A DNA stretch of 64,000 nt from Candidatus Latescibacterota bacterium (GTDB lineage Bacteria > Latescibacterota > UBA2968 > UBA8231): positions 704,001 to 768,000 of the forward strand of contig OY730476.1 of NCBI GenBank assembly GCA_963422735.1. The letters are read 5' to 3'. Below, piece after piece: positions 10,747-56,048 of this stretch. Under the pieces are notes generated by a model. It was not told the DNA's origin and did not search any database. It saw only the letters and a program-made list of their open reading frames with translations. Every line of letters begins with the position of its first letter. Within the stretch, counting starts at the first letter, position 1. A program made the translations under genes and the position numbers.

Positions 10747-11888
10747 TCGAAGAGGAAGTGGCTGCGATTCCGGCCGCCGAGCTTGCGGTCGAACAGGTCC
10801 TGCACCTGCATGCCCAATACGCAAAAGAGTTGGAGTTCGGCTTCCCCAGCCCGCTCAATGGCCAGTGTTATCAGCTCAGGTCGCGGGGCTATGTCGGCGT
10901 GGTGCCATTGGGCGCGGATGCCGCCTTAGAAATCAATCCCAAAATACGTTGCTCACTGCTCATGCCCATGCTGGAGTACGCCTATCAGTTGCCCAAGATT
11001 AGCGGGTACAAGGCCCCAGCCACTATGGGGGATATCTACGAGTTTTGGGCCGAGGTACTCGCGCGCAAGGTCCTGCAACGGGTGCGGCGCGGGCTGTTTT
11101 GGGATTACCAAACCCGCGAAGGCCCCAGTCGGTGGGTGCGGGGGCGCATGTACCCCGAGCGCAGCAATCTGGGCGTTCACCCCTACTGTCGCTTTGCAGA
11201 GCACACGCCAGACATCATCGACAATCGCATCTTGGCCAACGCGCTGTACGGCCTGAGGTGCTTTGCCTTTCGCCGCGAAAGCACTCGGCAGATGGTCGGT
11301 CGAGCTTGGTGGGTGCTGAGCGAGCTAAATTACCGCCACATTCGCCCCGCAGATTGCCTCGGTGTAGCGTACCACAGGCTAAACGAGGACTACCAACCCA
11401 TGCATGCCCTGTGTTATCCCTTGCTCCAACAGCGAAGTCCGGCTTGGGGGCTGGGGGCCAAGGAAGGGCCGGCGTACCTGCTGCACATGCCGACCTTATT
11501 CGAACGGTTTTGCACGGCGTTCATCGACCACAAGCTAAATCACAGAGTCGAGCTAAAAGCCCAGTATCACACGCGACTAAAGGGAACGGAGCGGCTTTCT
11601 TTTCGCTTGGATATGGCCCTGTTTTCAGCGGCAACTGGGCAGCCGCTGGCAGTAGTTGATGCCAAGTACAAGGTCGGCGGTCCCTCGGAAAACGATGTGC
11701 AGCAGGTGGTTGCCTATGCGGTGCAGCTAGGTACGCGCCGCGCCTTTTTGCTCTATCCGAGCAGCGATATGGACGAGCAGTTTGAGGTCGGTTTAGTAAC
11801 GGTACAAGCACTCGGGTACGATTTTGAAGCCGAGGATCTAGAAAGAGCGGGCCAGCGCGTGATCCGCAAAATAGAAAATGCTATATAA
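10728..11888 (+). CDS. mcrC: McrC-like PD-(D/E)xK nuclease subunit
   Basis: YVGVV..LEINPK, MPTLFERF, LDMAL..VVDAKYK and DVQQVVAYA; GTG start overlaps mcrB. Confidence 0.88.
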   Translation: MRRYELIEEEVAAIPAAELAVEQVLHLHAQYAKELEFGFPSPLNGQCYQLRSRGYVGVVPLGADAALEINPKIRCSLLMPMLEYAYQLPKISGYKAPATMGDIYEFWAEVLARKVLQRVRRGLFWDYQTREGPSRWVRGRMYPERSNLGVHPYCRFAEHTPDIIDNRILANALYGLRCFAFRRESTRQMVGRAWWVLSELNYRHIRPADCLGVAYHRLNEDYQPMHALCYPLLQQRSPAWGLGAKEGPAYLLHMPTLFERFCTAFIDHKLNHRVELKAQYHTRLKGTERLSFRLDMALFSAATGQPLAVVDAKYKVGGPSENDVQQVVAYAVQLGTRRAFLLYPSSDMDEQFEVGLVTVQALGYDFEAEDLERAGQRVIRKIENAI

Positions 11889-11905
11889 AAATTAATATGT
11901 AAATA
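11878..11905 (+). repeat. dif-like site A: ATGCTATATAA-AAATTA-ATATGTAAATA
   Basis: 11-6-11 layout; right arm resembles the XerD arm TTATGTAAACT; mcrC stop TAA lies in the left arm; 20 bp identical to site B. Confidence 0.65.
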
Positions 11906-11921
11906 CAATATTAGAAAAAAA

Positions 11922-13175
11922 TCAAGACTCAACGAGAAACAAACTCAACTCAGCCCAGTAAGTAATCACAACTAAGCAAGCCAACAGAATCAACAGAAAA
12001 GGCAAGGAAACGCGGTAGAGCCGATGTACGGGCTGTTCAAAGCGAATGCTGGCAATAAAGAGATTGAGCCCAATCGGCGGCGTCGAGTAGCCGATTTCCA
12101 AGTTGGTCAAAAAAATGATCCCGAGGTGAATGGGATGCACATCGTATGCTGCGGCGATGGGCACGATCAGGGGCACGACGATGAGGAGGGCAGAGAACAT
12201 GTCGATCATACAGCCCACAGCTAGCAGAAATACATTGAGGAGAATCAAGAAGAGCGGGCGGCTGCTGATGTGAGTCTCTATATAGGCGAGCAAGCGCGTT
12301 GGAATTTCCGCATCAACGAGGTAGTTGGTATAGGCCATGGCGGCGGCCAAGACAACGAAAATGCCGCCGACGAGCACCATGCTGTCGCAGATGATTTTTG
12401 GCAGTTGCCCGATAGAGACCTCACGGCGGATTAGCACCACCACCACCAGAGCGTACAGAGTGCTCAAGGCCGCAGCCTCGCTGACGGCGATGATCCCCCC
12501 GTAGATCCCCCCGAAGATCACCAGCGGCAAAAGAAGCTCCCAACTACACTCGACAAAGGCCTGCGGCAATTGGTGCCACCCGATGGGGTGCTCGGGCGCG
12601 GCACTGCGCCGGCCTTGGAATAAGCTGTAGCAAGACAGCGCACCTACCAAAAGCAGGCCGGGGGCGATGCCCGCGATGAAAAGCTGATCTACCGGCGTCT
12701 CGGATACGATGCCGTAGATGATCAGCGGCAGGCTCGGGGGGAAGAGCAATCCCAAGCTGCCCGAGGTGGTAATCAGCCCGAGGGAAAACGAATCGGGCAG
12801 GCGCTGTTGTCGCAGAGCGGGCAAGAGCAGCCCACCGAGCGCGACGATCGTCATTCCCGAAGCCCCAGTCAAAGCAGTGAAGAGGGCGCAGACGACAATG
12901 GCCATAATGGCCAGCCCCCCTGGTAGCCAGCCGAGCAAAGCTTGGGAGAAGCGCACTAGCCGGGCCGGTGCGCCGCTTTCAGCGAGGACGAAACCCGTGA
13001 GGGCGAAGAGCGGAATAGCCGTTAAGGTCGGCGTTTCGGCTATCCGGTACATCTCGATGAAGACGACGGTTAAATCGATCTCGGCGAAGGAGAAGTGCAG
13101 AAGGGCCATCGCGCTGATGACCACAAAGAGCGGGACCCCGGCTAGGGCGGCTAGGGCGGCTAGGAGGCTGCTCAC
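11922..13175 (-). CDS. dctM: TRAP transporter large permease
   Basis: AIPLFAL.G, GSLGLLFPPS, DQLFIAGIAPG and TPPIGLNLF; GTG start at 13175. Confidence 0.9.
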   Translation of the reverse strand: MSSLLAALAALAGVPLFVVISAMALLHFSFAEIDLTVVFIEMYRIAETPTLTAIPLFALTGFVLAESGAPARLVRFSQALLGWLPGGLAIMAIVVCALFTALTGASGMTIVALGGLLLPALRQQRLPDSFSLGLITTSGSLGLLFPPSLPLIIYGIVSETPVDQLFIAGIAPGLLLVGALSCYSLFQGRRSAAPEHPIGWHQLPQAFVECSWELLLPLVIFGGIYGGIIAVSEAAALSTLYALVVVVLIRREVSIGQLPKIICDSMVLVGGIFVVLAAAMAYTNYLVDAEIPTRLLAYIETHISSRPLFLILLNVFLLAVGCMIDMFSALLIVVPLIVPIAAAYDVHPIHLGIIFLTNLEIGYSTPPIGLNLFIASIRFEQPVHRLYRVSLPFLLILLACLVVITYWAELSLFLVES

Positions 13176-13648
13176 GGGCGATCTGCGGGGGCGCGGAGGC
13201 GTCGCCCGCCCTGCAAGAGGAAGCGCAGCCCCATCAGGCCAAAGACGAGGGGAAAGCACAATTGGGCGATCCAAGCGGGGACGGCAAAGAAAGCCATCGT
13301 GCCGAATGCGCGTTCGTCGAGTACGAAGCACCCGGCGATATAGGCTAGATAGGCGCAAAGCGCGACGGCAAAAAAGTCCGCGCCACTCAAGACGATGGCT
13401 CGCACCCGGGCGGGTAGCAGGCGCAACGCAGCGTCAATGCGGATGTGTTTGTCGAGCCGGGTGGCCATCAAAGCACCGGCTAGCCCAATCCACAACACGA
13501 GATGCCGCACGAGGCTTTCGGTGCCCAAGAAGGTGATGGAAAACAGGTTGCGCATGAGAATCTGTCCGCAGGTCAGCACTAGCAAGCAGGTTACCAAAAG
13601 GACGAGGAAGCCGGTCTCGAATCGGTGGAGGAAGTGCTGACCGCTCAA
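13172..13648 (-). CDS. dctQ: TRAP transporter small permease
   Basis: QILMRN and KHIRID motifs; 4 TM. Confidence 0.85.
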   Translation of the reverse strand: MSGQHFLHRFETGFLVLLVTCLLVLTCGQILMRNLFSITFLGTESLVRHLVLWIGLAGALMATRLDKHIRIDAALRLLPARVRAIVLSGADFFAVALCAYLAYIAGCFVLDERAFGTMAFFAVPAWIAQLCFPLVFGLMGLRFLLQGGRRLRAPADRP

Positions 13649-19662: not shown

Positions 19663-19668
19663 ACTAAG

Positions 19669-19745
19669 GGGCTAATAGCTCAGCTGGATAGAGCGCCGGT
19701 CTCCGGAACCGGAGGTCCCAGGTTCGAATCCTGGTTAGCTCACCA
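19669..19745 (+). tRNA. tRNA-Arg(CCG)
   Basis: Cloverleaf GGGCTAA/TTAGCTC, anticodon loop CT-CCG-GA, GTTCGAATC, CCA end. Confidence 0.95.
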
Positions 19746-19778
19746 TTTTGTCGCCAGAGTATGGTCGGATAATTGAGT

Positions 19779-19856
19779 CGGGGTGTGGCGCAGCCCGGCT
19801 AGCGCGCTTCCTTGGGGTGGAAGAGGTCGCTGGTTCAAATCCAGTCACCCCGACCA
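19779..19856 (+). tRNA. tRNA-Pro(GGG)
   Basis: CGGGGTG/CACCCCG stem, loop TT-GGG-GT, CCA end. Confidence 0.95.
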
Positions 19857-19897
19857 TTTTTATATTTTATAAGATCGCAGCTTTTGCTTGTCCATGT

Positions 19898-19975
19898 CGG
19901 GGTGTAGCGCAGCCCGGCTAGCGCACCTGCTTCGGGAGCAGGGGGTCGCCGGTTCAAATCCGGCCACCCCGACCA
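19898..19975 (+). tRNA. tRNA-Pro(CGG)
   Basis: CGGGGTG/CACCCCG stem, loop TT-CGG-GA, CCA end. Confidence 0.95.
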
Positions 19976-20035: not shown

Positions 20036-21127
20036 ATGGCTTTATCCATCGGCATAATCGGCTTGCCCAATGTAGGTAAATCAACGCTCTTCAACGCGCT
20101 AACAGGAGATGGAGTCGAGGTATCTAATTACCCATTTTGCACAGTGGCACCCAATGTGGGTACCGTCGGGGTCCCGGATCCGCGATTAGAGGGGCTGAGC
20201 GAGGTTATACAGCCGGAATCCACAACGCCTACGAGCATCCGCTTTGTCGATATTGCTGGATTGGTGCGGGGCGCGAACCAAGGGGCCGGATTGGGTAACC
20301 AATTTCTCGCCCATGTCCGAGACGCCGATGCCCTAGTCCATGTGGTGCGCTGTTTTGACGACGCACAGATAAGCCATGTAGATGGGGCGATTGATCCCTT
20401 GCGCGATATTGAGACCATTGAAACGGAGTTGCTACTCGCTGATCTGGCGGTCATGGAAAAGGCCGTGCCCTCTCTAGATAAAGTGGTCCGCTCTGAGCCG
20501 CGGAGTACGCGCACACACGAGTTGGCGGCCTGTGCCAAGGTCTTAGAAGGATTGCAGCGCGGAACGGGCGCAGCGGCGATGGGGTTGACTATAGAAGAAA
20601 AGGACGCGCTCGCTCCGTATCGCTTGCTGACAGCAAGGCCGGTGCTTTATGCGGCCAATATCGGGGAAGCGGAGGCCGATCCACTAGGGCCATGGGTGGA
20701 TCGACTGGTCGAGAGCTATGGAGCGGATCAAGTGCTGGTCGTCTCGGCGCAGCTTGAAGCGGAGATGGCTGGTCTGAGCCGGGAGGAGAGAGCGGAGTTC
20801 GTCAGGGAATTGGGGCTGGAGCATGGGGGGGTAGAACGATTAGTCCAGGCCGGATACAAACTGCTGGATCTGATTACCTTCTATACGCTCGCCAACGGCA
20901 AGCTGCAGGCTTGGCAGTTCCCGCGCGGGGAAAAGGCATCGCGAGCGGCCGGGCGGATCCACACGGATATGGAAAAGGGGTTTATCCGCGCCGAACTCGC
21001 CTCCTGCGATCAGCTGCTCACTATGGGTGGGTGGGCACCGCTGAAAGCGGCCGGGCAATTGCGGAGCGAAGGCCGGGATTACACCATCGCCGATGGGGAC
21101 GTCATCACCTTCCTTTTTAAGGCTTGA
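20036..21127 (+). CDS. ychF: Ribosome-binding ATPase YchF
   Basis: GLPNVGKSTLFNALT, NYPFCT, DIAGLV and GRIHTDMEKGFIRAE. Confidence 0.93.
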   Translation: MALSIGIIGLPNVGKSTLFNALTGDGVEVSNYPFCTVAPNVGTVGVPDPRLEGLSEVIQPESTTPTSIRFVDIAGLVRGANQGAGLGNQFLAHVRDADALVHVVRCFDDAQISHVDGAIDPLRDIETIETELLLADLAVMEKAVPSLDKVVRSEPRSTRTHELAACAKVLEGLQRGTGAAAMGLTIEEKDALAPYRLLTARPVLYAANIGEAEADPLGPWVDRLVESYGADQVLVVSAQLEAEMAGLSREERAEFVRELGLEHGGVERLVQAGYKLLDLITFYTLANGKLQAWQFPRGEKASRAAGRIHTDMEKGFIRAELASCDQLLTMGGWAPLKAAGQLRSEGRDYTIADGDVITFLFKA

Positions 21128-29415: not shown

Positions 29416-29577
29416 ATGCCAAGTAGATTGAGTATTTTCTCTGAGTTATGGGATTTTATGAAGGTCCGCAAAAAGTGGTGGTTGGGGCCGATATTTGTCA
29501 CTTTGATCCTGTTAGGGCTGTTAATTGTCACAACTCAAGGGTCGGCGGTAGCTCCCTTTATTTACGCGCTGTTTTAA
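29416..29577 (+). CDS. DUF5989/SxtK-like small membrane protein (53 aa)
   Basis: Hand-translated MPSRLSIFSELWDFMKVRKKWWLGPIFVTLILLGLLIVTTQGSAVAPFIYALF. Confidence 0.85.
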   Translation: MPSRLSIFSELWDFMKVRKKWWLGPIFVTLILLGLLIVTTQGSAVAPFIYALF

Positions 29578-29603
29578 AACTTATAAAAATTAATATGTAA
29601 AAT
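29576..29603 (+). repeat. dif-like site B: AAAACTTATAA-AAATTA-ATATGTAAAAT
   Basis: Fills the whole gap between the DUF5989 stop and the apt ATG; 20 bp identical to site A. Confidence 0.65.
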
Positions 29604-35154: not shown

Positions 35155-35182
35155 ATGTCTTATAAAATTTTTTATGTAAATC
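35155..35182 (+). repeat. dif-like site C: ATGTCTTATAA-AATTTT-TTATGTAAATC
   Basis: Right arm matches 9/11 of the B. subtilis XerD arm TTATGTAAACT; left arm 10/11 identical to sites D and E. Confidence 0.75.
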
Positions 35183-35207
35183 AAAAATAAAAATCAGCAT
35201 ATATATA

Positions 35208-35732
35208 ATGAATGAACCATCCACGCCACCCACATACTTCGCTCTTGCATTAGCAAGCTTCTTATTAGCAATCGTGTTGCTGTTCAACTTGCTCAGCCCT
35301 ATGGCCATGCAGGTTACCAAGGAGCAGTTCGCTCAGATAAGAGAGGCCGATCTCATCGAGTATCTGATCGTGCAACCCCGGGGATTTACTTGGCAGCTCA
35401 AAAGGGCTGTGCGCGTCCAAGGGACCAACGGCGCGACGATGGCGGAGCGTATCGCGCTAGCTGAGCCCGACCCAGCCGTGGCCGAAGATTGGCGACAAAA
35501 GGGAGGAGCGGTGCGCCAAGAGCAAGATACCTCTTGGGGGGGGGGTGCAGTCTTCATCGCCTTGTTGCTCAGCGTGGGGGGATGGCACATCTGGTCCCAA
35601 ATACGGCTGGATCTCAAAGGGGGAGGGGGGCCACGCCGCCGCTTGCGCGACTTGGAAACCGCGCTCAAACAAGGCAAGATTACCCAAGCCGAATTCCGGC
35701 AGCAGGCCGAGCGGCTCTGGGCCGAATTGTGA
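35208..35732 (+). CDS. Two-TM membrane protein with SHOCT-like C-terminus
   Basis: Two hydrophobic helices; L..GKITQAEF tail. Confidence 0.6.
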   Translation: MNEPSTPPTYFALALASFLLAIVLLFNLLSPMAMQVTKEQFAQIREADLIEYLIVQPRGFTWQLKRAVRVQGTNGATMAERIALAEPDPAVAEDWRQKGGAVRQEQDTSWGGGAVFIALLLSVGGWHIWSQIRLDLKGGGGPRRRLRDLETALKQGKITQAEFRQQAERLWAEL

Positions 35733-35738
35733 GGATAT

Positions 35739-37481
35739 ATGGTGGGTAGCATTCGCGTTCTCGACGAAAGTCTCATTGGAAAAATCGCCGCCGGCGAGGT
35801 AGTGGAACGGCCGGCCTCGGTCGTGAAGGAGTTGGTTGAAAACTCGATCGATGCGGGTGCCGCTGAAATCCGCGTGGAAATCAAGGCCGGTGGCAAGCAG
35901 TCGATTGTCGTGACCGACGATGGATCGGGTATGAACAGGGAGGATATTGCTTTGTGCGTACACCGGCATGCCACGAGCAAGATGGCCTCGGTGGCGGACC
36001 TGTTTCGCATTCAGACGTTGGGGTTCCGCGGCGAGGCCCTAGCCAGCATTGGTGCGGTTGCCTACTTGGCGATAGAATCGCGCACACAGCAAAACGAAGC
36101 AGGGACGCGCTTGGTCGTGGAAGGGGGGATAGAGCGAGAGATGCACAGTATCGGCCGAGCGCACGGCACGACCATTATAGTAAAGAACTTGTTTTTTAAT
36201 ACGCCTGCGCGACGCAAGTTCCTCCGGTCCGTCGATGTGGAAGCCCGCCACGTGGCACAGACCATCATCCATTTATCCGCTGGCTACCCGGCCCTTGGCT
36301 TTGAACTAGCACGAGAAGATCGCCAAGTCTTGAGCTACGCCCCGGCATCTCGTCGAGAGCGGGCAGCCGAGTTGTTAGGGATTCAAGCGGCCGAATTGTT
36401 GGATCTCGCTTACGAGGAGGAAGGTCTCAAAATCGAAGGAGTCTTGGCCGGTCCCGAACACTGCGGCCGAAGCAAGGGCAAGCAGTACCTCATCGTACAG
36501 GGGCGGCCCATTTCTTCGCGACTGATGGCCAACGCCGTACAGCGGTGCTTTGAGGGGCTGCTGCCCGAAGGACATCATCCGGTATTTATGCTCTGGATCG
36601 ATATGGATCCCAAGAAAATCGACGTCAATGTCCATCCGACAAAGCGGGAGATTCGCTTGGCCAACGAAGGGCAAGTCATCGCGGCCATTGATAACAGCGT
36701 CCGGCAGAAGCTCAGGCTGCCCGATATGCAATCCTTTGTCTATGCTGCGGCCCCAATTCTGAGGCCGGACAGGATCCGCGTGGGCGAACCGGCGTCGCCG
36801 GTGTTGCACAGCCTACCCGCACCCGGCGAGCCCGAGTTAGCAGCAACCCATGATGTAGATGATCAACTTTCTCTGACTCTCGTCGCTCCGGCCGCGGCCA
36901 GAGTCGCCATAACCGAAGACGCCGCGATGTGGCAGGTCCACAACCAGTATATCCTCGTCGAGGTGGCCGATGGCTTGCTCTTTGTCGATCAGCAGGCCGC
37001 GCACGAACGCATTAACTACGATCGGGCCATGGCGCAAATGGACGGCGTGGCCGGCGAGAGTCAGCAGTTGCTCTTTCCCATACAGCTAGAAATGGGCGCA
37101 GCGGATTTTGAGGTCTTCAACCAAGTGCGGGCCGACATTGCCAAGCTGGGCTTTGTCGTGCGGGATTTTGGTACGCGGACGGTGTTGGTGGAAGCTGTCC
37201 CGGCTGAATTGGATCGCTTTGGCGAAGGCGATGTTTTCTATCAACTACTGAACGACATGCACGATGGCCAGCATTCGGGCCGGTCTTGGCGCGAAGCACT
37301 CGTCTTGGCGTACGTGCATAAAGCGAGCATCAAAAAAGGGCAGAAACTGAACGCCGAGGAAATGGCACACTTGATCGACGAATTGCTAAAGGTTGACACG
37401 CCGCACATAAGCCCGACGGACAAGCCGGTTATGACGCGGATGAAGTTGGGCGATATGGAGCGTCTGTTGCGGAAGTTCTAG
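35739..37481 (+). CDS. mutL: DNA mismatch repair protein MutL
   Basis: IAAGEVVERPASVVKELVENSIDAGA, GFRGEALASI and DVNVHPTK. Confidence 0.95.
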   Translation: MVGSIRVLDESLIGKIAAGEVVERPASVVKELVENSIDAGAAEIRVEIKAGGKQSIVVTDDGSGMNREDIALCVHRHATSKMASVADLFRIQTLGFRGEALASIGAVAYLAIESRTQQNEAGTRLVVEGGIEREMHSIGRAHGTTIIVKNLFFNTPARRKFLRSVDVEARHVAQTIIHLSAGYPALGFELAREDRQVLSYAPASRRERAAELLGIQAAELLDLAYEEEGLKIEGVLAGPEHCGRSKGKQYLIVQGRPISSRLMANAVQRCFEGLLPEGHHPVFMLWIDMDPKKIDVNVHPTKREIRLANEGQVIAAIDNSVRQKLRLPDMQSFVYAAAPILRPDRIRVGEPASPVLHSLPAPGEPELAATHDVDDQLSLTLVAPAAARVAITEDAAMWQVHNQYILVEVADGLLFVDQQAAHERINYDRAMAQMDGVAGESQQLLFPIQLEMGAADFEVFNQVRADIAKLGFVVRDFGTRTVLVEAVPAELDRFGEGDVFYQLLNDMHDGQHSGRSWREALVLAYVHKASIKKGQKLNAEEMAHLIDELLKVDTPHISPTDKPVMTRMKLGDMERLLRKF

Positions 37482-37542
37482 CCGGTTATTGGAGTTTTAG
37501 CAGGATGGTTATTAGGGTGCCGACTTGGGCAACAAGTTGTCC

Positions 37543-37571
37543 TTGACTTTTATTTTCTTGTAAGTTATACT
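37543..37571 (+). promoter_or_regulatory. Sigma70 promoter of recombinase gene (TTGACT-17-TATACT)
   Basis: Near-consensus hexamers with 17-bp spacer. Confidence 0.65.
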
Positions 37572-37626
37572 ATCTATAACAGGCATTATCGGTAGTATAA
37601 AAACCAATAGCCCCTGCGAGCATTCA

Positions 37627-38607
37627 ATGAGCGAAACACTTAATCCGGTCGTCAACAGGCTGACGCCAACTCCAGCGTTAGCATTAGCAGCGGACGATCC
37701 TTTGGAACAATTTCTCAGCGGCCAACTCAGCGAGCGCACGCGGCGTGCGTATTACGCTGATCTCCAGCATTTCTTTTTTTCTATCGGCATGGAGCTAAAT
37801 GAAGTCTCCCTCACCATCTTGCAGTCAATCACCTTTGAGCACGTGGTCGCCTTTAGAAATCAACTCGCCAGCGCAGGCTACAAACGCAGCAGCATCAACA
37901 GAAAATTGTCCAGCCTGAAGTCGTTGTTCAAGATGTTAGTCGCTTTAGGCCACATTGAGAAAAATCCCGCTGACTCCACCTTGGTACGCGGCTACAAGGT
38001 GGACGAAACACTGGCCGGCAAAGCGCTTTCTAATGAGGTGCTGAATAAGCTCCAGCAAGCTATTGCCCAAGAAAAAGACGACTTGGTCCGCACTCGGGAT
38101 GCGGCCATGTTCCATTTGCTCACTTTTGGCGGGCTGCGCCGCTCCGAAGTGGCAGGGGTCGCTTGGGAGGATATATCCTTGGAGGGCGTTTTTCACATCC
38201 TGAACCTGCCCCAAACTAAATCAGGCGTGGCTCAGGAAATCAAACTACAAAACATCGTCTTACATTATCTCGAACTATACAAACAACAACTACAAGTAGC
38301 GGGCTTGCCGACGACCGGCAAGGTCTTTATCAGCCTGTCGCGCAACCATTCTCACGGCCAGCCGCTGACTGACCAATCGGTCAATCACATCGTCAAGAAG
38401 TACGCCCTGCGCGTCGGCCTCTCCCAAAACGTCACCGCGCACATGTTCCGCCACACCTGCTGCACCTTGGCGATTGAAGGCGGAGCCAAGCCCCAGCAGG
38501 TGCAAGCCCATTTGCGTCACAAGGATCTAAAGACAACCATGCGCTACTACGAAAATCGCGAGAAGCTGCTCGATAATGCGTCTGATTATATTAGGATTAG
38601 TAGTTGA
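37627..38607 (+). CDS. Tyrosine recombinase (Xer-like size, not canonical XerC/XerD)
   Basis: SERTRRAY N-domain; GLRRSEV (R), TKSG (K), HMFRH, LRH and TTMRY catalytic set intact. Confidence 0.92.
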   Translation: MSETLNPVVNRLTPTPALALAADDPLEQFLSGQLSERTRRAYYADLQHFFFSIGMELNEVSLTILQSITFEHVVAFRNQLASAGYKRSSINRKLSSLKSLFKMLVALGHIEKNPADSTLVRGYKVDETLAGKALSNEVLNKLQQAIAQEKDDLVRTRDAAMFHLLTFGGLRRSEVAGVAWEDISLEGVFHILNLPQTKSGVAQEIKLQNIVLHYLELYKQQLQVAGLPTTGKVFISLSRNHSHGQPLTDQSVNHIVKKYALRVGLSQNVTAHMFRHTCCTLAIEGGAKPQQVQAHLRHKDLKTTMRYYENREKLLDNASDYIRISS

Positions 38608-38615
38608 TTATTTTT

Positions 38616-38643
38616 TGTTTACATATTAAATAGTATAAGACAT
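38616..38643 (-). repeat. dif-like site D: ATGTCTTATAC-TATTTA-ATATGTAAACA (candidate chromosomal dif)
   Basis: 8 bp after the recombinase stop, abuts the leuS stop, lies where gene orientation converges. Confidence 0.75.
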
Positions 38644-41573
38644 TACACCACGATATTTACAATTTTATTCGGCACCCATATAAACCGTTTTATCGCTGTC
38701 TCATCTGCTACGTATTTCTGGATGCTCTCCATGTCGAGCACCAAGGATTTTATCTCATCTTCTCCGGTGTGGACCGGCACTTCGACTTGGCCGCGCATTT
38801 TGCCATTAACCTGAATGGGCAAAACGATCGTGTCCTCGGCGGCTTTTGCTGCATCCCACTCGGGCCAGTTCCGGCGACTGACCCCTTCCGTCCCGAAACC
38901 CGCCATTTCCCATAGCTCCTCGGCAATGTGCGGAGCAAAGGGCGCGAGCAGGATCAAGAAGGGCTTAGCGATGGCCTGTGGCACCTCGTCTAAAGGAACC
39001 AACAGGTTGTTTAACTCGATCAAGGCGGCAATGGCCGTATTAAACCGAAGCCCCTCTATATCCTCGGTTACCTTTTGGATGGTTTGATGCAGCTTTCTTT
39101 CCAGCTCCGGCGCAAGCGCAGTGCTCTCCCCTATTTTCACCTGTCGATCCGCATCGACAAAGTTGCGCCAAACGCGCTGCAAGAAGCGCTGCATCCCGCG
39201 AATGCCTTCCATGCTCCACGGCGCACTCGCTTCGAGCGGCCCCATGTACATTTCGTACAGCCGCAAAGTATCCACGCCAAATTCCTCGCCAACCTCTTCG
39301 GGCGGCAGCCCGTTTTTGTAACGTTTGCCCATTTTGCCGGGAGACCGGCGCAGCGTCTTCCCCGTCCCTTTCTCAATAGGCTCTCCGTCGCGGAACTCAA
39401 CTTCGCGAATGTCGATATACACGCCGCGATCGTCCTGAAAAGCATCTGCGGTCATCATACCTTGATTGAACAGCTTCTTAAACGGCTCGGGCGTGGATAC
39501 GTGCCCTAAGTCGTAGAGGGCCTTGTGCCAAAACCGGGCGTAGAGCAAGTGCAACACGGCGTGTTCAGCGCCGCCGATGTAGAGATCAACGGGCATGAAG
39601 TAGCCCTCCTTGGCCAAGTCGCAGAAGGCTTCTTCGTTGTGTGGGTCAATAAAGCGGAGATAGTACCAGCAAGAACCGGCCCATTGGGGCATGACATTGA
39701 GTTCGCGCTGGCAGGCCACCCCGTCAATTTCCACCGTCATCCACTCCGCTCCGGCCCGGTGCAGCGGAGGCGAAACGGGGCGGGCGGGATCGTCGGAGGT
39801 CTCCGGTCTAAAATCCTCTATATCCGGCAGTGCCACCGGAGGCGCGACCGCTACGGAATATCCATCGGGATGCGTGGCCAGTGGAAAAGGTTCGCCCCAA
39901 TAGCGCTGCCGCGCGAAGGTCCAGTCGCGCAGTTTGTGGTTTACCGCAGATTGGCCGCGCCCTTGGGCGACTAGTGCAGCGACAATCTGGACTTTGGCCG
40001 CGGCCGTTGGCAATCCGTTAATGGCATACGGACTATCGCCGCTATCATCCTTCCGTGACGGAGGCGAATTGATCGCGGTTCCCTCCCCAGCATACCACTC
40101 TGTCTCGCCAGCACTGGCGAGACAGAGCACGGTCTCCTCTTCCCCGGTAACTACCTTCACAATGTCCAAGTTATAGGCAGTGGCGAAGGCGAAATCGCGC
40201 TCGTCGTGGGCCGGCACGGCCATAATCGCTCCCGAGCCGTAGTCCATACTGATGTAGTCGGCGACGAAAACGGGAATTTTTTGTCCACTGACTGGATTGC
40301 GGGCGTAGATGCCGGAGAAGATGCCCGTTTTTTCCTCGGTTTCATCTGCAGTGGAGACAGCAGCCTGAGCGACGTACTGGGCTACAGCTTCCCGAATGGG
40401 ATTCCCTCCCCCCTTCCCCTTCCACTGCTGAGGCGTCCTGTCGGGCCAAGTGCTGGGAACCAAGTAGGATTCCTCAGCAGGATCCACCAGCGGATGCTGA
40501 GGCGCAACGGCCATAAAGGTCGCCCCAAAGAGCGTATCGGGCCGGGTCGTGAACACGGGTAACTGCCCAGCGACCACATCGCTTTGCGGATCGAGGATAT
40601 CAAAGTACACTTCAGCCCCTTCGCTACGACCAATCCAGTTGCGCTGCATCCGCTTGATAGGTTCTGGCCAATCGAGCCGGAAGGGCTCGCCGTTGCGATC
40701 CTCTAGCTCGAAGTCCAAGTCCTCTAAGAGCCGCTCGGCGTAGGCTGTTATACGCATTGTCCACTGCCGCAGCGGTTTGCGATATACGGGAAAAGCGCCC
40801 CGCTCGCTGCGGCCTTCGTTGGTTACCTCCTCGTTGGCCAACACAGTGCCCAAGCCTGGGCACCAGTTGACGACGGCCTCTTGTTGGTACGCTAGCCGGT
40901 AGTTGTTTAGCACGGCTTGGTGCTCGGCCGCACTGAGTGCTGACCAGTCAGCATCAGTGCCGAGTACTTCGCGATCTGCAACCGACAATGCCCTGCCAGC
41001 CGCAAATTGGTCCTCTAAGTCGGCGATAGGCTTGGCCCGCCCTTTTATTTGCCGTCTATTGCCGTCTTCCCAGATCTCGTCTGCGTCGAAATAGCTATCG
41101 AAAAGTTGGGCAAAAATCCACTGGGTCCAGCGGTAGTACGATACCCGCGACGTGACCTGTTCGCGGGCCCAGTCAAACGACAGCCCGAGGAACTGCAATT
41201 GGCCGCGCATCGCATCAATATTTTGCTCGGTAACAGCCGCTGGATGAATGTTGTGTTCGATGGCGTATTGCTCGGCCGGCAATCCGAAACTGTCGAACCC
41301 CATCGGATGCAGGACGTTAAATCCCTGCATCCTTTTGTAGCGGCTGTAGATGTCGCTGGCGATATACCCTTTGGGATGGCCGATGTGCAACCCCGCGCCG
41401 CTTGGATAGGGAAACATATCGAGGACGTAGCACTTGGGTTTGCTGTCATCGAAACCGGGGTCTCCCGGTCCCAGCGTTTGATAAGTCTTCTCCTGATCCC
41501 AGTGGGACCGCCATTTGGCTTCGATAGTTTGGAAGTTGTAGTTGTATTGGCCTTTTTTTGATTTTGTTGACAT
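38643..41573 (-). CDS. leuS: Leucine--tRNA ligase
   Basis: LDMFPYPSGAGLHIGH, TTRPDT, GGAEHAVLHLLYARFW and KMGKR. Confidence 0.96.
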   Translation of the reverse strand: MSTKSKKGQYNYNFQTIEAKWRSHWDQEKTYQTLGPGDPGFDDSKPKCYVLDMFPYPSGAGLHIGHPKGYIASDIYSRYKRMQGFNVLHPMGFDSFGLPAEQYAIEHNIHPAAVTEQNIDAMRGQLQFLGLSFDWAREQVTSRVSYYRWTQWIFAQLFDSYFDADEIWEDGNRRQIKGRAKPIADLEDQFAAGRALSVADREVLGTDADWSALSAAEHQAVLNNYRLAYQQEAVVNWCPGLGTVLANEEVTNEGRSERGAFPVYRKPLRQWTMRITAYAERLLEDLDFELEDRNGEPFRLDWPEPIKRMQRNWIGRSEGAEVYFDILDPQSDVVAGQLPVFTTRPDTLFGATFMAVAPQHPLVDPAEESYLVPSTWPDRTPQQWKGKGGGNPIREAVAQYVAQAAVSTADETEEKTGIFSGIYARNPVSGQKIPVFVADYISMDYGSGAIMAVPAHDERDFAFATAYNLDIVKVVTGEEETVLCLASAGETEWYAGEGTAINSPPSRKDDSGDSPYAINGLPTAAAKVQIVAALVAQGRGQSAVNHKLRDWTFARQRYWGEPFPLATHPDGYSVAVAPPVALPDIEDFRPETSDDPARPVSPPLHRAGAEWMTVEIDGVACQRELNVMPQWAGSCWYYLRFIDPHNEEAFCDLAKEGYFMPVDLYIGGAEHAVLHLLYARFWHKALYDLGHVSTPEPFKKLFNQGMMTADAFQDDRGVYIDIREVEFRDGEPIEKGTGKTLRRSPGKMGKRYKNGLPPEEVGEEFGVDTLRLYEMYMGPLEASAPWSMEGIRGMQRFLQRVWRNFVDADRQVKIGESTALAPELERKLHQTIQKVTEDIEGLRFNTAIAALIELNNLLVPLDEVPQAIAKPFLILLAPFAPHIAEELWEMAGFGTEGVSRRNWPEWDAAKAAEDTIVLPIQVNGKMRGQVEVPVHTGEDEIKSLVLDMESIQKYVADETAIKRFIWVPNKIVNIVV

Positions 41574-41592
41574 AATAATCCTTATAAGACAC
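41565..41592 (-). repeat. dif-like site E: GTGTCTTATAA-GGATTA-TTATGTCAACA
   Basis: Begins right after the asnS stop; the right arm contains the leuS ATG. Confidence 0.72.
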
Positions 41593-42897
41593 TTATGGAT
41601 AGAGGCGCTGCATCATGCGCGGAAATGGAATGGTCTCGCGCACATGCTTGACGCCGCACAACCAAGCGACCACCCGCTCGATTCCCATGCCAAAGCCAGC
41701 GTGCTCTACCGAGCCATAGCGCCGCAAGTCGAGATACCAACTAAAGGCTTCTAGGGGCAACTGATGCGCGGCGATCTTGGGCTGCAAGACGGCGAGATCG
41801 TCTTCGCGTTGCCCGCCTCCGATGATTTCCCCGTATCCTTCGGGAGCCAACAGGTCCATGCACAGGGCCAAGCGGCGATCTTGGGCATCTTCCTTCATGT
41901 AGAATGCTTTGACTGCGCTGGGATAGCGGTGGACGAAAACCGGTGACTCAAACTCGGAGGCGAGGACGGTTTCATCGTCCCCACCCAGATCACTCCCCCA
42001 TGTGATGTCGTTACCAAGAGCTGTCAAGCGCTCGACAGCTTCATCGTACGTTATGTGCGGAAAGGGCCGGCTGATCCGTTCCAGCTTGGCGATGTCTCGG
42101 TCGAGGTGCTTTAGCTCTTCGCGGCGGCGGTTGAGCACGCGGTCGAGCACGTACAGGACCATGTCCTCGGCTAAGACCATAGCACCCTCTAAATCGCAAT
42201 ACGCCATTTCCGGCTCGATCATCCAGAACTCGGTCAGGTGCCGGCGAGTCTTGGACTTTTCAGCGCGGAATGTCGGCCCAAAACAATAGACCTTACCCAA
42301 GGCCATGGCGGCTGCTTCCATATAGAGCTGACCGCTCTGGGTCAAATAAGCCGTGTCGTCGAAATACGCGGTCTCAAACAGGGTCGAGGTCCCTTCACAG
42401 GCCGCAGGCGTAAAAATCGGCGCATCGACGAGAACAAAGCCGCGCACTTCCATGAAGTCGCGGCAGGCTTTGCAAATTTCGCTGCGGATCTTGAGAATGG
42501 CCCCGGGCCGCCTCGACCGCAGCCACAAGTGGCGGTGGTCGAGGAGAAAGGACACCCCGTGTTCCTTGGGGGCGATGGGGTATGGCTCGGCCTCCTGCAC
42601 GACGTCGAGGTGGCAGACCCCCACCTCATAGCCGATGGGCGCACGCGCCTCCCGCCGCACTTGGCCGCGGACTACGAGCGAAGATTCTTGGGGCAAGTGA
42701 TCGCACCGCTCGAATAACTCGGACTCGACATCCCCCTTAAAAACAACGCATTGTACCACGCCGCTGCCGTCGCGTAGCTGCAGAAAATGCAGCTTGCCGC
42801 TGGAGCGCTTGTTGTACAACCAACCGCGCAGTTTTACTTCTCGACCCTCGTAGCGGCCGATGTCAGCCACCTGAATCGACTCCATTTGCTTATTCAT
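41593..42897 (-). CDS. asnS: Asparagine--tRNA ligase
   Basis: [35 protein letters not shown] and GFGMGIER. Confidence 0.93.
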
Positions 42898-42912
42898 ATA
42901 CCATATAATAGG

Positions 42913-42941
42913 AAAAGACTATCGAGATGGACTCGATAGCC
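42913..42941 (-). terminator. Terminator after pnp
   Basis: GGCTATCGAG-TCCAT-CTCGATAGTC-TTTT on the minus strand. Confidence 0.65.
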
Positions 42942-51696: not shown

Positions 51697-52119
51697 CTAG
51701 AGGAGGCGCAAAATTTCGCGCAACTCCTTTTTGGCTTCTTCGATCATTCTGAATGCGGCCTCCCGGTCCTGTGCAGATTTGCGGTTAGTCCGCTCCGGTG
51801 CTGCAGCGGGCCTGCTCTGCTGTTTAGCGCGCAAAACAGGGACTTGTTCCCCAACCTGGCACAGGAGCACGGGTTCGTCTTTGAGCTTCTTCTTTACGCC
51901 CTGCGTCGTGTAGCACTCCTCGTGGAGGAGGCGTTTGAGCAACAAGATGATCCCTATATCGCGCTCCCTATAGGCTCTGTTTTTACCACCGCGCGCACGG
52001 CGCGGCCGCAAACAGGAGAATTCCTTCTCCCATGCCCTAAGCGTATAGGGTTGTAGCTGTGTGAGTTCTGCGACTTCGCTAATGCTGTAATACAGCTTGT
52101 TTTGCAACGGATTCTTCAC
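51697..52119 (-). CDS. MerR-family HTH regulator
   Basis: KLYYSISEVAE..LRAWEKEF..R.Y. Confidence 0.85.
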   Translation of the reverse strand: MKNPLQNKLYYSISEVAELTQLQPYTLRAWEKEFSCLRPRRARGGKNRAYRERDIGIILLLKRLLHEECYTTQGVKKKLKDEPVLLCQVGEQVPVLRAKQQSRPAAAPERTNRKSAQDREAAFRMIEEAKKELREILRLL

Positions 52120-53471
52120 GATCGCACTTCTCTGTATCCTTTGCGCCGACGCCAGACAATGCGCAAGGGCGTTCCCTCGAAATCAAACTCCGACCTCAGT
52201 CGACTTTCGATGTGGCGTCGATAATTGCCCGGCACGGAGCGAGGCAGATTCGTAAAGATCGTAAACGCTGGCGGATTGATCGCGTGTTGGGTGGCGTAGA
52301 GCAGGCGGATGTCTCGGCCATCTTGAGTCGCCAAGTACTCGCCGGAGAGTTTCTGAATAATCTTGTTCAAGCGCGCAGTGGGAATCCGCGTCCGGCGCTT
52401 GTTGCCCACCACGGCTACCACTTCGAGACACTTGTGAACCCGCCGTCCGGTCAAGCCCGATATGCACAGCACTGGATAGTCGCGCAAAAAGGGATAGCGG
52501 TCGCGTAGCTCGCGGCGGTACTCAGCTGCGGTTTTCTCGGCGACTAAGTCCCATTTATTGATCGCCACCACTAAGCCGCATCCAGATTTTATCACCTGTT
52601 CCATGATGCGGGCGTCCTGCATGACCCATCCCTCGGCACTGTCTAGGAGCACGACCGCCACATCGGCTTGGACGATGCTGTTGGCCGCCCGGCGCGTGCT
52701 GTAGAATTCCACCGGATCATCGACCTTAGATCGCCTCCGCAAACCGGCCGTGTCCACGAACAGCAGGTGGTTATCCTGCCAAACCAAGCGCAGTTGGGTT
52801 GGGTCTCGGGTCGTACCGGGCCGTTCGTGAACGATGGAAACCTGATAGCCTGCGAGGCGGTTGATCAGCGTGGATTTGCCCACATTGGGCCGCCCGACCA
52901 AAGCGACCCGGATCGCCTCTTCATCCCATTCCGGCTCATAAGCCCCAGCCTCGTCGAAGAGCGCAATGAGCGCGTCGAGTAAATCGCCGGATCGCCGCCC
53001 GGTAACGGCTGAAACCGGCAGGGGATCCCCCAAGCCGAGCCGGTAGAATTCGTCGAGCGAAGCGACCGGCCCCACCCCATCAACCTTGTTGACGGCCAGC
53101 AAGCACTTCCCACTCCCACTGCGCAGCATGGCCCCCATCTCTTGGTCGAGATCGGTCACACCCGTGCTCCCATCGCAGAGAAAAATGGCTATATCTGCTT
53201 CTGCCAATGCCTTTGCCGCTTGGGAGCGCACGGCCGCGGTTAGCGCATCTTTGGCTCTGGGCATATAGCCTCCGGTATCGACCAAAGTGAAGGAGCGCCC
53301 TCCCCACTCAGCCGCGGCAAATATCTGATCGCGCGTGACCCCGGGCTGGCCATCGGTTATGGCCCATCGAGTCCCCAAGATGCGATTGAAAAGGGTCGAT
53401 TTGCCCACGTTGGGCCGACCAACAATCGCCACGATGGGTCGGCGATGGCTCTCGACGGTTTGGGTACTCAT
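52116..53471 (-). CDS. der: Ribosome biogenesis GTPase Der
   Basis: Two GRPNVGKST G-domains; FDFEGTPL. Confidence 0.95.
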   Translation of the reverse strand: MSTQTVESHRRPIVAIVGRPNVGKSTLFNRILGTRWAITDGQPGVTRDQIFAAAEWGGRSFTLVDTGGYMPRAKDALTAAVRSQAAKALAEADIAIFLCDGSTGVTDLDQEMGAMLRSGSGKCLLAVNKVDGVGPVASLDEFYRLGLGDPLPVSAVTGRRSGDLLDALIALFDEAGAYEPEWDEEAIRVALVGRPNVGKSTLINRLAGYQVSIVHERPGTTRDPTQLRLVWQDNHLLFVDTAGLRRRSKVDDPVEFYSTRRAANSIVQADVAVVLLDSAEGWVMQDARIMEQVIKSGCGLVVAINKWDLVAEKTAAEYRRELRDRYPFLRDYPVLCISGLTGRRVHKCLEVVAVVGNKRRTRIPTARLNKIIQKLSGEYLATQDGRDIRLLYATQHAINPPAFTIFTNLPRSVPGNYRRHIESRLRSEFDFEGTPLRIVWRRRKGYREVRS

Positions 53472-54826
53472 TTTTCGCGCCCTATGTAATAACCCAGCTC
53501 GGTTAGCTGCCGCCCTTCCCCCTGTACTTTCACATGCTGATCGGTCCAAAAGCGCTCAAACGATCCGACTAAGTCGTACCCCCCTACCGCAAGGGGGACG
53601 CCGACCTTTTCCGCGAGTTGGAGCACGGTCATGTCGTCTAGCGTCAAGCCCTCGCCATTGACGCAATTGGGCGGCAGCAAGACCAAATCTCGCTGGATTC
53701 CATCGCGCACTCTCGCCGCTATATCGCGGCCGGTTAACAGGCCCGATACAGTGATGCCGCGGCCGAAAAAGTCGTTATCTACCGGCAGGAGATCGACCTG
53801 TACGTTCTCGATAGCATTCAGCCTAGCCACTAGGGGCACGAGGATTGGCTCGGCCAAGCGCCCGGTCAGCAGGCCGACCCGCACGGCCTCGGCAGTGCGC
53901 CCGGGCAGCCTCTTTTTGGCCTCGTCCCAAGTGTCGAGGAAGGAGCGGACCATGCCGATGCCGTTTTCTAGCTGGGGAAACGCATCGTAATACGGTGCCT
54001 CTGGCAGAGGCCGGCCCGTCAGCAGAAAGATCTCGTCAGCCGCATAGACGAACCGCTCGCCAAAGCGAGCTTTGAATTGCAAACCCCACGCTTCGGCTGC
54101 GGCCGCGTACTCAGCGGCCCTAGCCGGGGTCACCGGATCGAGTTGGACGAGCTTGTGCCGATGATCGGTCAGCCCCACGGGCACGAGTGCCACCGAGCGG
54201 ACCGCGGGATAGTAAGTGGATAAATCGGCCACCGTGCGCTCTAGGTGCGGCCCGTCGTTCCAGCCCGGGCAGAGCACAACCTGGGTGTGCATTTCAATGC
54301 CGTTGGCAGCTAGTTTGCGCAAGCGCTCGTTGATATCGACGGTCGCTTTCGTGCGGCCGAGCATGACTTGCCTCAGCTCGGGGTCGGTGGCGTGGACTGA
54401 GATGTATTGCGGTGTTAGCCCTTGTTCAATGATGCGGTCGATATCGCTTTCGCGGACATTGGTCAGGGTTACGTACGAGCCGTGGAGAAAGGAGAGCCGA
54501 AAATCGTCGTCCTCAAAATACAGGCTGCGCCGCATGCCCTTGGGCATTTGGTGGATAAAGCAGAAGACGCATTTGTTGTTGCAGCTACGCAAGCGCATAT
54601 CCTCGAAGACGAGCCCTAGGGACTCGCCGCTCCGACGCTCAATCTCGGCCTCGTACAGGTCTTTGCCGCGCTCGATTTCTACGCAGATCACTTCCTCGGC
54701 GCTGTTGACCTGAACGTCGATCAAATCGCGCACTTCTTCGCCATTGATGCGCAAAATGCGATCGCCAATGCAAAATCCCGCACGCGCGCCGAGGCTGTCG
54801 GGTTCAATCTGTTTTACGACGACCAT
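53468..54826 (-). CDS. PDZ / radical-SAM-like DUF512 protein
   Basis: CNNKCVFCF, DDDFRLSFL.G and QLENGIG; adjacent to der. Confidence 0.88.
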   Translation of the reverse strand: MVVVKQIEPDSLGARAGFCIGDRILRINGEEVRDLIDVQVNSAEEVICVEIERGKDLYEAEIERRSGESLGLVFEDMRLRSCNNKCVFCFIHQMPKGMRRSLYFEDDDFRLSFLHGSYVTLTNVRESDIDRIIEQGLTPQYISVHATDPELRQVMLGRTKATVDINERLRKLAANGIEMHTQVVLCPGWNDGPHLERTVADLSTYYPAVRSVALVPVGLTDHRHKLVQLDPVTPARAAEYAAAAEAWGLQFKARFGERFVYAADEIFLLTGRPLPEAPYYDAFPQLENGIGMVRSFLDTWDEAKKRLPGRTAEAVRVGLLTGRLAEPILVPLVARLNAIENVQVDLLPVDNDFFGRGITVSGLLTGRDIAARVRDGIQRDLVLLPPNCVNGEGLTLDDMTVLQLAEKVGVPLAVGGYDLVGSFERFWTDQHVKVQGEGRQLTELGYYIGREK

Positions 54827-54920
54827 AGCGAACTAAGCAATTAATCTACGTATCGTAATGTGGGGCAAGATGTTCTATCGGTAAAGGTATATGGATATTC
54901 CGCCGACGGCAATACCTTGG

Positions 54921-54961
54921 GAAAAATAAAAAATCCGCCTGACCGAGTTGGCCAGGCGGAT
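54921..54961 (-). terminator. Terminator after tRNA-Gly
   Basis: ATCCGCCTGGCC-AACTC-GGTCAGGCGGAT-TTTTT on the minus strand. Confidence 0.8.
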
Positions 54962-54963
54962 GA

Positions 54964-55038
54964 TGGAGCGGGAGACGGGAATCGAACCCGCGACATCAAG
55001 CTTGGGAAGCTTGCGCTCTACCCCTGAGCTACTCCCGC
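54964..55038 (-). tRNA. tRNA-Gly(CCC)
   Basis: GCGGGAG/CTCCCGC stem, CAAGC-TT-CCC-AA-GCTTG, TCCA end. Confidence 0.95.
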
Positions 55039-55078
55039 TAATTTTGTGGCCCTAAGGTAGGAGAGGCCCCAACCGCTG

Positions 55079-56029
55079 TCAACCCGGATCGCTCCCCCAT
55101 CTGTACTCCCACTCGCCGACGATGCGCTGGACGACACCGGCCTTTCCCCATACGTCGAGGTCTAATTCGCGCAAGCGGCGGTCGCGGCGGCACCACGTCA
55201 CTTGTCGTTTGGCCAAGTGACGGGTGCGCCGTTTGGTCCGCTCAACGGCCTCCTTCCAAGGGCAATGCCCTGCCAGCGCACTGCATATTTCGAGATAGCC
55301 CAACGTCCCCAAGGCACTGGCACCTGGATCGTATCCCATTTCGCGCAAGGCGCGGACTTCCTCGACCCATCCCCGCTCTATCATTTGCTCGACCCGCTGG
55401 TCGATCCGATCGTAGAGTCGACTGCGCGCCATGGTCAGGCTGATCGTTTGCGGCTGCCGCGCAAACGGCTGCCCCTTGCGCTCTCGCCATAGCTCGCTGA
55501 GGGTGCTCTTCCCACCTATGGCTACCTCCAAGGCCCGGAGGATCCGCTGCGTGTCTCCCGGCTGCAAACGCGCTTGCGCGATCGGATCCCGACAGCCCAA
55601 CTCATCGTATAGGGATGCAAGCCCTTCGCAATGCAGGCGATTTTTCAATTCAGCGCGGATCGGCGCGTATTCGGTCTCGTCCTCAAAACATCCGTCCAAT
55701 GCACTCTGCCAGTACAGGCCCGTTCCTCCAACCACTATGGGAAGGCCCCCTCTGTTCCAGATCTGCCCAATGATGTGCCTTGCAGCTCGAGCATACGCTC
55801 CCGCGCTATAGTTTTCCTCGGGACCGAGCACATCGAGCAAGTGATGGGTGCATTGGCTTTGCTGCTCAGCGGTTGGCTTGGCCGTGCCGATGTCCATGTA
55901 GCGGTAGATTTGCCGCGAGTCTGCCGAGATGATTTCCACTTTGGGCAAGTGCCGGGCCGCTTTGAGGGCTATTTCCGTTTTGCCGGTGGCCGTGGGGCCG
56001 GTGATCAGGATGAGAGGTTTGTTTAACAT
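55079..56029 (-). CDS. miaA: tRNA dimethylallyltransferase
   Basis: GPTATGKT, SADSRQIY..MDIGTAKP and GGTGLY. Confidence 0.95.
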   Translation of the reverse strand: MLNKPLILITGPTATGKTEIALKAARHLPKVEIISADSRQIYRYMDIGTAKPTAEQQSQCTHHLLDVLGPEENYSAGAYARAARHIIGQIWNRGGLPIVVGGTGLYWQSALDGCFEDETEYAPIRAELKNRLHCEGLASLYDELGCRDPIAQARLQPGDTQRILRALEVAIGGKSTLSELWRERKGQPFARQPQTISLTMARSRLYDRIDQRVEQMIERGWVEEVRALREMGYDPGASALGTLGYLEICSALAGHCPWKEAVERTKRRTRHLAKRQVTWCRRDRRLRELDLDVWGKAGVVQRIVGEWEYRWGSDPG

Positions 56030-56048
56030 ATTTTTAAATATAAATACA
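56021..56048 (-). repeat. dif-like site F: TGTATTTATAT-TTAAAA-ATATGTTAAAC
   Basis: Right arm matches 9/11 of the E. coli XerD arm TTATGTTAAAT and contains the miaA ATG; left arm more divergent. Confidence 0.55.

Follow-up and report, generated by a model that had tools for sequence, protein, structure and literature searches.

The dif site is the textbook case of a site kept in one copy: almost every circular bacterial chromosome has it once, at a precise location. The DNA considered here, a window of 64,000 nucleotides (positions 704001-768000) from the single-contig genome of a Candidatus Latescibacterota bacterium, carries six sites of this type, A to F, arranged in two opposed groups around the gene for a tyrosine recombinase. 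In our view it is probable that dif-type Xer sites have been multiplied at the replication terminus of one Latescibacterota family, and that the core of the resulting array is a flipping cassette carrying the gene for a third Xer-like recombinase. The two innermost sites, C and D, are inverted recombination sites that flank a flippable cassette, a feature lying beyond anything proposed in an earlier, sequence-only reading of this DNA. The genome (4.95 Mb, 59.5% G+C) was assembled from a metagenome, with completeness of 95% and contamination of 5%.

All six 28-mers listed in the sequence-only reading are present letter for letter; their scores are given here from an independent matrix, trained on 36 sites from other genomes and on zero from the window. 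Site A (11878-11905, +; 40.3 bits), the outer left dif-type site, lies between the stops of mcrC (+) and of the TRAP gene dctM (-). Site B (29576-29603, +; 38.2 bits) lies between prs and apt, the apt start codon beginning at base 27 of the site. Site C (35155-35182, +; 42.8 bits), the left inverted recombination site, marks the left end of the invertible cassette; its partner on the right, site D (38616-38643, -; 37.1 bits), is found 9 nt past the recombinase stop and abuts the leuS stop. Site E (41565-41592, -; 31.9 bits) occupies the gap between asnS and leuS, the ATG of its right arm being the leuS start codon. Site F (56021-56048, -; 16.2 bits) is degenerate in this genome; its right arm supplies the ATG with which miaA starts. 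As had been claimed, the sites alternate with the core genes prs, apt, mutL, leuS, asnS and miaA; as had been expected, their arms are kept while the spacers vary. The right arms are identical at 8-9 of 11 positions to the XerD arm of Escherichia coli or Bacillus subtilis dif (a hand count against the sequences printed in PMC3025954). These XerD-type arms all face inward, toward 35.2-38.6 kb, and the strand of the sites changes at the recombinase gene.

Chance is ruled out for sites A to E. With the independent matrix they take the top five places in the 4.95 Mb (31.9-42.8 bits), the best other position scoring 26.3. With a matrix built from the six sites themselves, only A to F reach 30 bits, the next best position standing at 25.2; when each site in turn is left out of that matrix, A to E rank 4th to 7th and F 461st among about 9.9 million positions on both strands. 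Site F scores low by the independent matrix too, since 17 positions in the genome reach 16 bits; we nevertheless count it as real because the orthologous miaA start in five congeners carries strong sites (22.8-35.6 bits), with the left arm conserved. The expectation that strong matches in a genome-wide position weight matrix scan would be restricted to the replication terminus is borne out. The cumulative GC skew curve of the whole genome peaks at the array and cassette, with a sign change between 36 and 40 kb of the window, and dnaA, at 3.07 Mb, adjoins the opposite sign change, which makes the replichores about 2.6 and 2.3 Mb long; the skew maximum at the array, together with dnaA opposite, therefore places the array at the terminus. 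The skew profile is otherwise irregular, with local reversals at 4.15-4.45 Mb and 1.55-1.75 Mb that suggest past rearrangements or assembly problems in a single-contig metagenome-assembled genome.

The invertible cassette between C and D (35183-38615; 3.46 kb) contains a gene for a 174-aa membrane protein (35208-35732), which begins 25 nt past site C, followed by mutL (35739-37481) and the recombinase gene (37627-38607, +), whose 326-aa product is the third Xer-like tyrosine recombinase of the genome. Oriented by the recombinase gene, related loci fall into two layouts. In L005, L009 and L019, blastn matches both flanks in reverse and 35201-38644 in the forward direction; the matches break at 35191/35201 at C (within about 20 nt) and at 38643/38644 at D. 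Within the genus, 25 of the 26 genomes (25 loci plus the window) could be scored, 15 as colinear and 10 as flipped. A tree was built from leuS for the 23 rows in which this gene is complete, and its well-supported branches require no fewer than five independent changes of state. Shuffling the labels gives a mean of 6.8 changes, and 42 of 500 shuffles are as low as observed, so that cassette state is almost unlinked to phylogeny. Sister pairs 2-9% apart have opposite states (L011/L012, L015/L016, L008/L009 and L013/L017). The spacers of C and D differ widely from genome to genome. The two match exactly in 6 of 21 comparisons within a genome and in 33 of 420 pairs drawn from different genomes (permutation p 0.0025, kin not being independent). 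An artefact of assembly was considered and rejected: no assembly word is as short as the 28-bp repeats, and many of the genomes are single-contig chromosomes, several of them with each orientation. The sequence-only reading had spoken of a terminus-organising or recombination system; recombination finds support indirectly, through recurrent site-bounded inversions between species, and the orientations are seen as evolutionary products.

The mirrored layout, which that reading had expected to find conserved, is preserved in five of five complete congeners checked and, with three sites on each side, in another genus. The related records are named Candidatus Latescibacterota, and some are labelled Gemmatimonadota. 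Each of the five complete congener chromosomes has 4-7 exact pattern matches, and 26 of these 27 matches lie in one array of 30-45 kb, a (+) block followed by a (-) block. Across related loci, 142 matrix matches conform to this polarity and 5 do not, by a matrix partly trained on the same loci and with neighbouring matches counted. The right, XerD-type arm is nearly invariant, and the left arm differs by position class, that of site E being fully conserved. A (-) site lies at most 400 nt past the recombinase stop in 43 of 55 related loci. In the second genus with three sites on each side, represented by G089 (g11), three (+) and then three (-) sites stand around the skew switch; the A-like (953692+), B-like and F-like sites occupy the gene junctions seen in the window, and B orthologues are found upstream of apt in both G089 and G086. 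In the latter (g8), 11.6 kb separates a D-like from a B-like site. In G095 (g14) and G093 (g13) the region between mutL and leuS holds a closely spaced inverted pair, the two sites lying 1.1-1.6 kb from each other. The skew switch is at most 10 kb from the cassette in G086, G095, G093 and G089. In G095 and G093 the (+) site is located between mutL and the recombinase gene; we infer that a weak dif-like site found at this place in the window (37553-37580, +; 14.1 bits) is a relic.

Among the sister families, f4 genomes mostly give a single exact pattern match, and f2 and f3 genomes mostly one to three and at most six. The five genomes examined from f2 and f4 have one full dif each, AACCGGTATAA / GATACA / TTATGTAAACT, in the 4 kb examined, and the right arm WTATGTMAA is common to the array sites and this single dif. 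Several f2 genomes (for example at G027 C1:4608843 and G029 C1:3888986) also have a second, conserved dif-like motif, of the ATAAGRGNAAATATGTCAA type, 0.3-0.7 Mb from dif.

The cassette protein carries the fold signature of tyrosine recombinases together with both domains of the Xer type. Measured against curated models, it reaches 130 bits for XerC (cut-off 335), 83.5 for XerS (267) and 105.9 for XerA (220), and it is also far under the cut-off for XerD; it matches the XerH structure at E 0.0003 only and is 25-26% identical to the XerC-like protein and the XerD encoded elsewhere in the same genome. The catalytic residues R, K, H, R, H and Y align with those of XerD, fall in a very conserved C-terminal third, and do not vary among 30 homologues with identities as low as 60%. 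At E 1e-40 or better an orthologue is present in 59 of 75 genomes of the family, one copy each, and the 56 genomes of the class that belong to three sister families have none. The enzyme, called an orphan in the sequence-only reading, is not the only Xer-like one: the genome also encodes an XerC-like protein (316 bits, just under the cut-off of 335), XerD (336, above its cut-off) and FtsK-gamma, along with SMC.

A tyrosine recombinase holds this slot even after non-orthologous replacement. The g12 genomes are without an orthologue and have another tyrosine recombinase, of 309 aa, between an inverted pair of sites (G090 C1:1834833-1836005; G092 C3:1707062-1708385); it shows 32% identity to the cassette enzyme over 152 residues and belongs to a multi-copy family, with 3-9 copies per genome. 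The pair, composed of one canonical site and one TGTAA/TTTTGTAAA variant, occupies the same mutL/leuS slot in G092, and in G090 its flanking genes differ. Around four further copies of the g12-type enzyme that were examined, no dif-like inverted ends turned up; the pairs seen there were GC-rich, of low identity and attributable to chance. In a search for canonical Xer proteins at E 1e-60, g12, g13, g19, g20 and g21 each give one match, and a laxer search adds weaker second matches, some with in-frame stops. The second XerC/D-like match is weak (148-164 bits) and has one in-frame stop in three of three g21 genomes checked (G136 C1:2237687-2238547; G135 C6:352405-353271; G133 C1:4123367-4124236), two of which retain the cassette enzyme. 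One could envision that the second Xer gene of g21 is decaying and that its role has been taken over by the cassette enzyme. We infer that this enzyme, alone or with XerC/XerD, is the probable catalyst of the flip, because the slot always holds a tyrosine recombinase, because the inverted pair is found only where such a gene is present, and because the catalytic residues are conserved. XerC and XerD could be its partners or the real catalysts.

A larger inversion also involves the array. The block from the gene at 20036 through miaA (20036-56048, 36 kb) is reversed in this genus relative to four other genera, represented by G089, G095, G086 and G093. In G089 its ends carry the F-like (+) site and the sixth, (-) site, which form an inverted pair; the sixth site is separated from its two flanking genes by 32 nt and 12 nt. 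A crossover at this outer pair is a likely, if unproven, origin of the inversion. The left junction in the window falls at the genes for tRNA Arg-CCG, Pro-GGG and Pro-CGG (19669-19975), where a good left-arm half-site (TCTTATAA plus an AT spacer) is found between two of the tRNAs on the minus strand (19852-19880), its other half being a tRNA 3' end. The left arm of F resembles that of F in G089 more than that of the sixth site there. An exact site-to-site crossover was sought for this inversion and could not be assigned with confidence, only F remaining and its left arm being of the G089 F kind.

These findings can be brought together in the following model. Each site is made up of two arms around a 6-bp spacer, the XerC-type arm being variable and the XerD-type arm conserved, and Xer proteins are predicted to bind it. 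The recombinase gene sits right at the GC-skew switch; the inverted sites on either side of it point their XerD-type arms inward, and recombination between C and D would flip the cassette. Such a flip would be harmless: in either orientation the cassette would stand downstream of a co-oriented operon and be co-directional with one replichore. C or D would presumably still be able to resolve chromosome dimers. The outer sites may be older or secondary copies, in mirror polarity, that recombine rarely or never. Only with mirror polarity does a crossover between two sites on opposite arms yield an inversion that spans the terminus, and such an inversion leaves all genes with their orientation relative to replication intact; a site in the wrong orientation would instead be expected to cause deletion of the terminus or inversion within one arm. 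The nearly invariant XerD-type arm, the position-specific left arms and the variable spacers suggest that the outer sites are retained for a protein-binding function. This conservation signature is present across genera at site A, which lies in a convergent gap and for which we have no other explanation. Unloading SMC, stopping forks or FtsK, and regulating the overlapped genes are all candidates for the role.

Several observations weigh against this interpretation. The direct repeats on each arm flank essential genes, and efficient recombination between them would bring lethal deletions, so that the outer sites must be poor substrates for one another and less than fully active. No (-) site of at least 20 bits is found just past the recombinase stop in 12 of 55 related loci. 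Among these 12, D is deleted in L010 (10985-11010), so that C and E would be the innermost inverted pair; D has a 7-bp spacer in L003 (11011-11039); and the site past the recombinase stop has the opposite orientation in three high-G+C loci. G097 has no site of at least 18 bits in the 42 kb examined. At the junctions of the 36-kb block, the window genome has a full site (F) on one side only, the other being the tRNA cluster, which is without a full site. Finally, among 20 public runs listed as matching the species, none of them an RNA run, the contigs of four (X1, X2, X6 and X7) were compared; they cross C and D in the window orientation only, with no joint at either site, contigs being prone to drop rare variants.

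Among the alternatives, one concerns the outer sites. A, B, E and F might be XerD-binding sites that unload origin-derived SMC and are not meant for recombination; in B. subtilis, as Karaboja reportedly described in 2021, several XerD-binding sites unload SMC. We regard this as possible, if somewhat unlikely. As in the Bacillus case, dif-like sites with a conserved XerD arm are present in several copies near the terminus, and the variation of the left arm by position class, the confinement of the sites to about 45 kb of the terminus and the presence of both SMC and XerD all agree with such a role, as does the conservation of A in a convergent gap, which is otherwise unexplained. On the other hand, the inner sites of the array recombine, its polarity is strictly mirrored, and an extra recombinase gene stands at its centre, which unloading of SMC leaves unexplained; g13 and g14 have the inner pair only, with 40 kb on either side examined; the left arm of E is fully conserved; and the Bacillus sites are not known to have an orientation requirement. 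XerD is described as unloading SMC in a sequence-specific manner at the terminus (PMC12322038, PMC11840125).

A second alternative leaves the outer sites aside and holds that XerC and XerD do all the work, flips included, the cassette recombinase being a passenger, for instance a domesticated integrase trapped between inverted dif copies that are unable to excise it. We think this unlikely. XerC, XerD and FtsK-gamma are indeed present, the arms of the array sites match the single dif of the sister families, and the g12 occupant comes from a multi-copy, mobile-looking family. However, a passenger would hardly be expected to be single-copy and strongly conserved with invariant catalytic residues, to be replaced by another tyrosine recombinase where it is lost, or to be kept in two of the three g21 genomes in which the second Xer has an in-frame stop.

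It is tempting to go further and imagine a Xer-derived terminus machine, in which the third recombinase would bind the mirrored sites, form a polar barrier or stop signal for forks, SMC or FtsK, and drive terminus-symmetric inversions. Were this quite improbable scheme true, it would represent an independent invention of a Ter-like fork trap from recombination parts and would provide an enzymatic cause for the symmetric inversions around bacterial termini.

We find it very doubtful that the array is simply a polar fork trap of the Tus-Ter or RTP-Ter type, in which a fork would pass a site from its XerC-arm side and be stopped from its XerD-arm side by a protein encoded beside the innermost sites. 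The geometry is suggestive: as in those systems, opposed groups of polar sites, three and three in two genera, stand around the terminus; the skew switch is less than 10 kb from the cassette in the four genomes named above; and the gene for the putative site-binding protein lies between the innermost sites, as the tus and rtp genes adjoin their inner Ter sites. The genome encodes no homologue of Tus or RTP, the control searches being positive in E. coli and B. subtilis, which counts in favour of this proposal and also sets the array apart from the known traps, as does the recombination-site nature of its sites. Several genera have two sites only, however, a sharp skew switch at dif is usual even without a trap, and a mere barrier would have no need of the catalytic residues, all of which are retained; no tyrosine recombinase is known to arrest forks.

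It is highly improbable that the direct repeats on each arm are scars of mobile elements integrated at dif through Xer, as in arrays of integrative mobile elements exploiting Xer (IMEX). Successive integration at each of two inverted sites would, it is true, give exactly the + + + / - - - order, and some congeners have extra cargo in or beside the cassette, such as the leucine-rich-repeat genes of L054. Against this, the intervals hold the core genes prs, apt, leuS, asnS and miaA where IMEX arrays hold mobile-element DNA, and no phage or plasmid genes were seen among the genes between the sites; moreover, gene order is the same in genera without the outer sites, which argues that the genes predate the sites. 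A prophage array is likewise rejected. Acinetobacter pdif modules, which are bounded by inverted XerC/D sites and reside on plasmids, differ in that neighbouring sites on one arm of the array are direct repeats and that the array is chromosomal. Lastly, the notion that the sites are AT-rich promoter or operator elements tracking gene starts, which the sequence-only reading had itself named as fatal to its proposal, can be discarded with next to no reservation: B, C, E and F do each stand at the 5' end of a co-oriented gene, and three of the four overlap the start codon, but genome scans find only five or six sites in 4.95 Mb, A and D are both in convergent intergenic positions, both arms and the 11-6-11 spacing are conserved, and inversions break at the sites.

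Multiplication of dif-type sites around a flipping cassette can be filed as a variant of Xer/dif that has traits of an inversion switch and is laid out like a fork trap. With XerCD/dif the array has in common the 28-bp 11-6-11 site, the conserved XerD-type arm, the location at the GC-skew switch opposite the origin and the presence of XerC, XerD and FtsK-gamma. It differs in having five strong sites plus F instead of one per chromosome, in the inversion of its inner two sites around a third recombinase gene, and in its AT-rich, variable spacers, the dif spacer being conserved. A unique dif match was predicted in each of 715 chromosomes (PMC3025954). In the literature searched, the one natural example of inverted dif sites to come up was Lactobacillus delbrueckii ssp. 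bulgaricus, where two opposite dif sites lie at the terminus in duplicated inverted repeats of 38-76 kb (PMC5345009). That arrangement was called unprecedented and judged transient, and was reported from none of 1373 other chromosomes. It resembles the array in having two dif sites in opposite orientation at the terminus; in contrast, the array repeats only 28-bp sites, has a family-wide layout and encloses a recombinase gene. No mirrored dif array, no recombinase gene between inverted dif sites and no dif in Latescibacterota came to light in the literature searched.

In the XerS/difSL, XerH/difH and XerA systems the recombinase gene likewise adjoins its presumed site, as it does here at D; the cassette enzyme, however, falls outside the XerS and XerA subfamilies by score, XerC and XerD are retained, and there are two inverted sites where those systems have one. 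The R64 shufflon with Rci and the fim switches also have short inverted sites beside a recombinase gene and both orientations in nature, the latter occurring here between species; unlike these, the cassette sites are dif-type and at the terminus, the segment carries the housekeeping gene mutL, and no expression switch is evident. Integrase-driven inversions of chromosomes are described for Thermococcales (PMC5495485). In the present case a family keeps at least two inverted copies of a dif-type site around an extra Xer-like gene, some genera having six in mirror order, and the terminus has flipped at array sites many times among relatives. If the outer sites are bound, the array would constitute a second, independent multi-site Xer organisation of the terminus and the first with strict polarity. 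How cells tolerate several dif sites, whether Xer proteins can be polar barriers and whether site-specific recombination lies behind symmetric inversions around termini all become testable here; the host is uncultured, yet the parts are small enough for work in E. coli or in vitro.

Some further features of these loci deserve mention. To the right of D, leuS (38643-41573, -) is the sole gene between D and E, and miaA (55079-56029), whose start is overlapped by F, encodes an IPP (isopentenyl pyrophosphate) transferase. A 16.1-bit match at the asnS start (42891-42918, +), in the wrong orientation for its arm, is probably due to chance. The 174-aa protein at the left end of the cassette has two hydrophobic segments and only a sub-threshold match to GvpG, and tblastn (E 1e-15) finds no counterpart in the four other genera compared. 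In the high-G+C genus g21 (G133 C2:590983-592226, and likewise L039, L042 and L045) the site past the recombinase stop is reversed, and a weaker site upstream may be a direct repeat of it; in G133 the locus belongs to a second replicon of 1.13 Mb whose GC skew is flat. Between mutL and the recombinase gene, position 37536/37537 is a contig break in two independent runs (X1 and X2, the second with an alternative branch) and coincides with the weak relic site and with insertions of 1.4-1.9 kb in L020 and L054. Extra DNA in or beside the cassette is found in L054 (5540-6782, 8548-9995 and 10965-12084) and in L020 (8064-9995 and 11024-11606); two of the L054 inserts encode leucine-rich-repeat proteins on the opposite strand, and the remaining inserts have no Pfam match. 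At the left edge of the array, a gene for an mcrB-like AAA_5 ATPase and mcrC (9295-11888) end inside site A, and the same gene pair adjoins the A-like site of G089. An McrB-like protein was pulled down with dif-flanking DNA in work on the dif boundary of archaea (PMC11840125), and the proximity of mcrB and mcrC to site A may be a coincidence.

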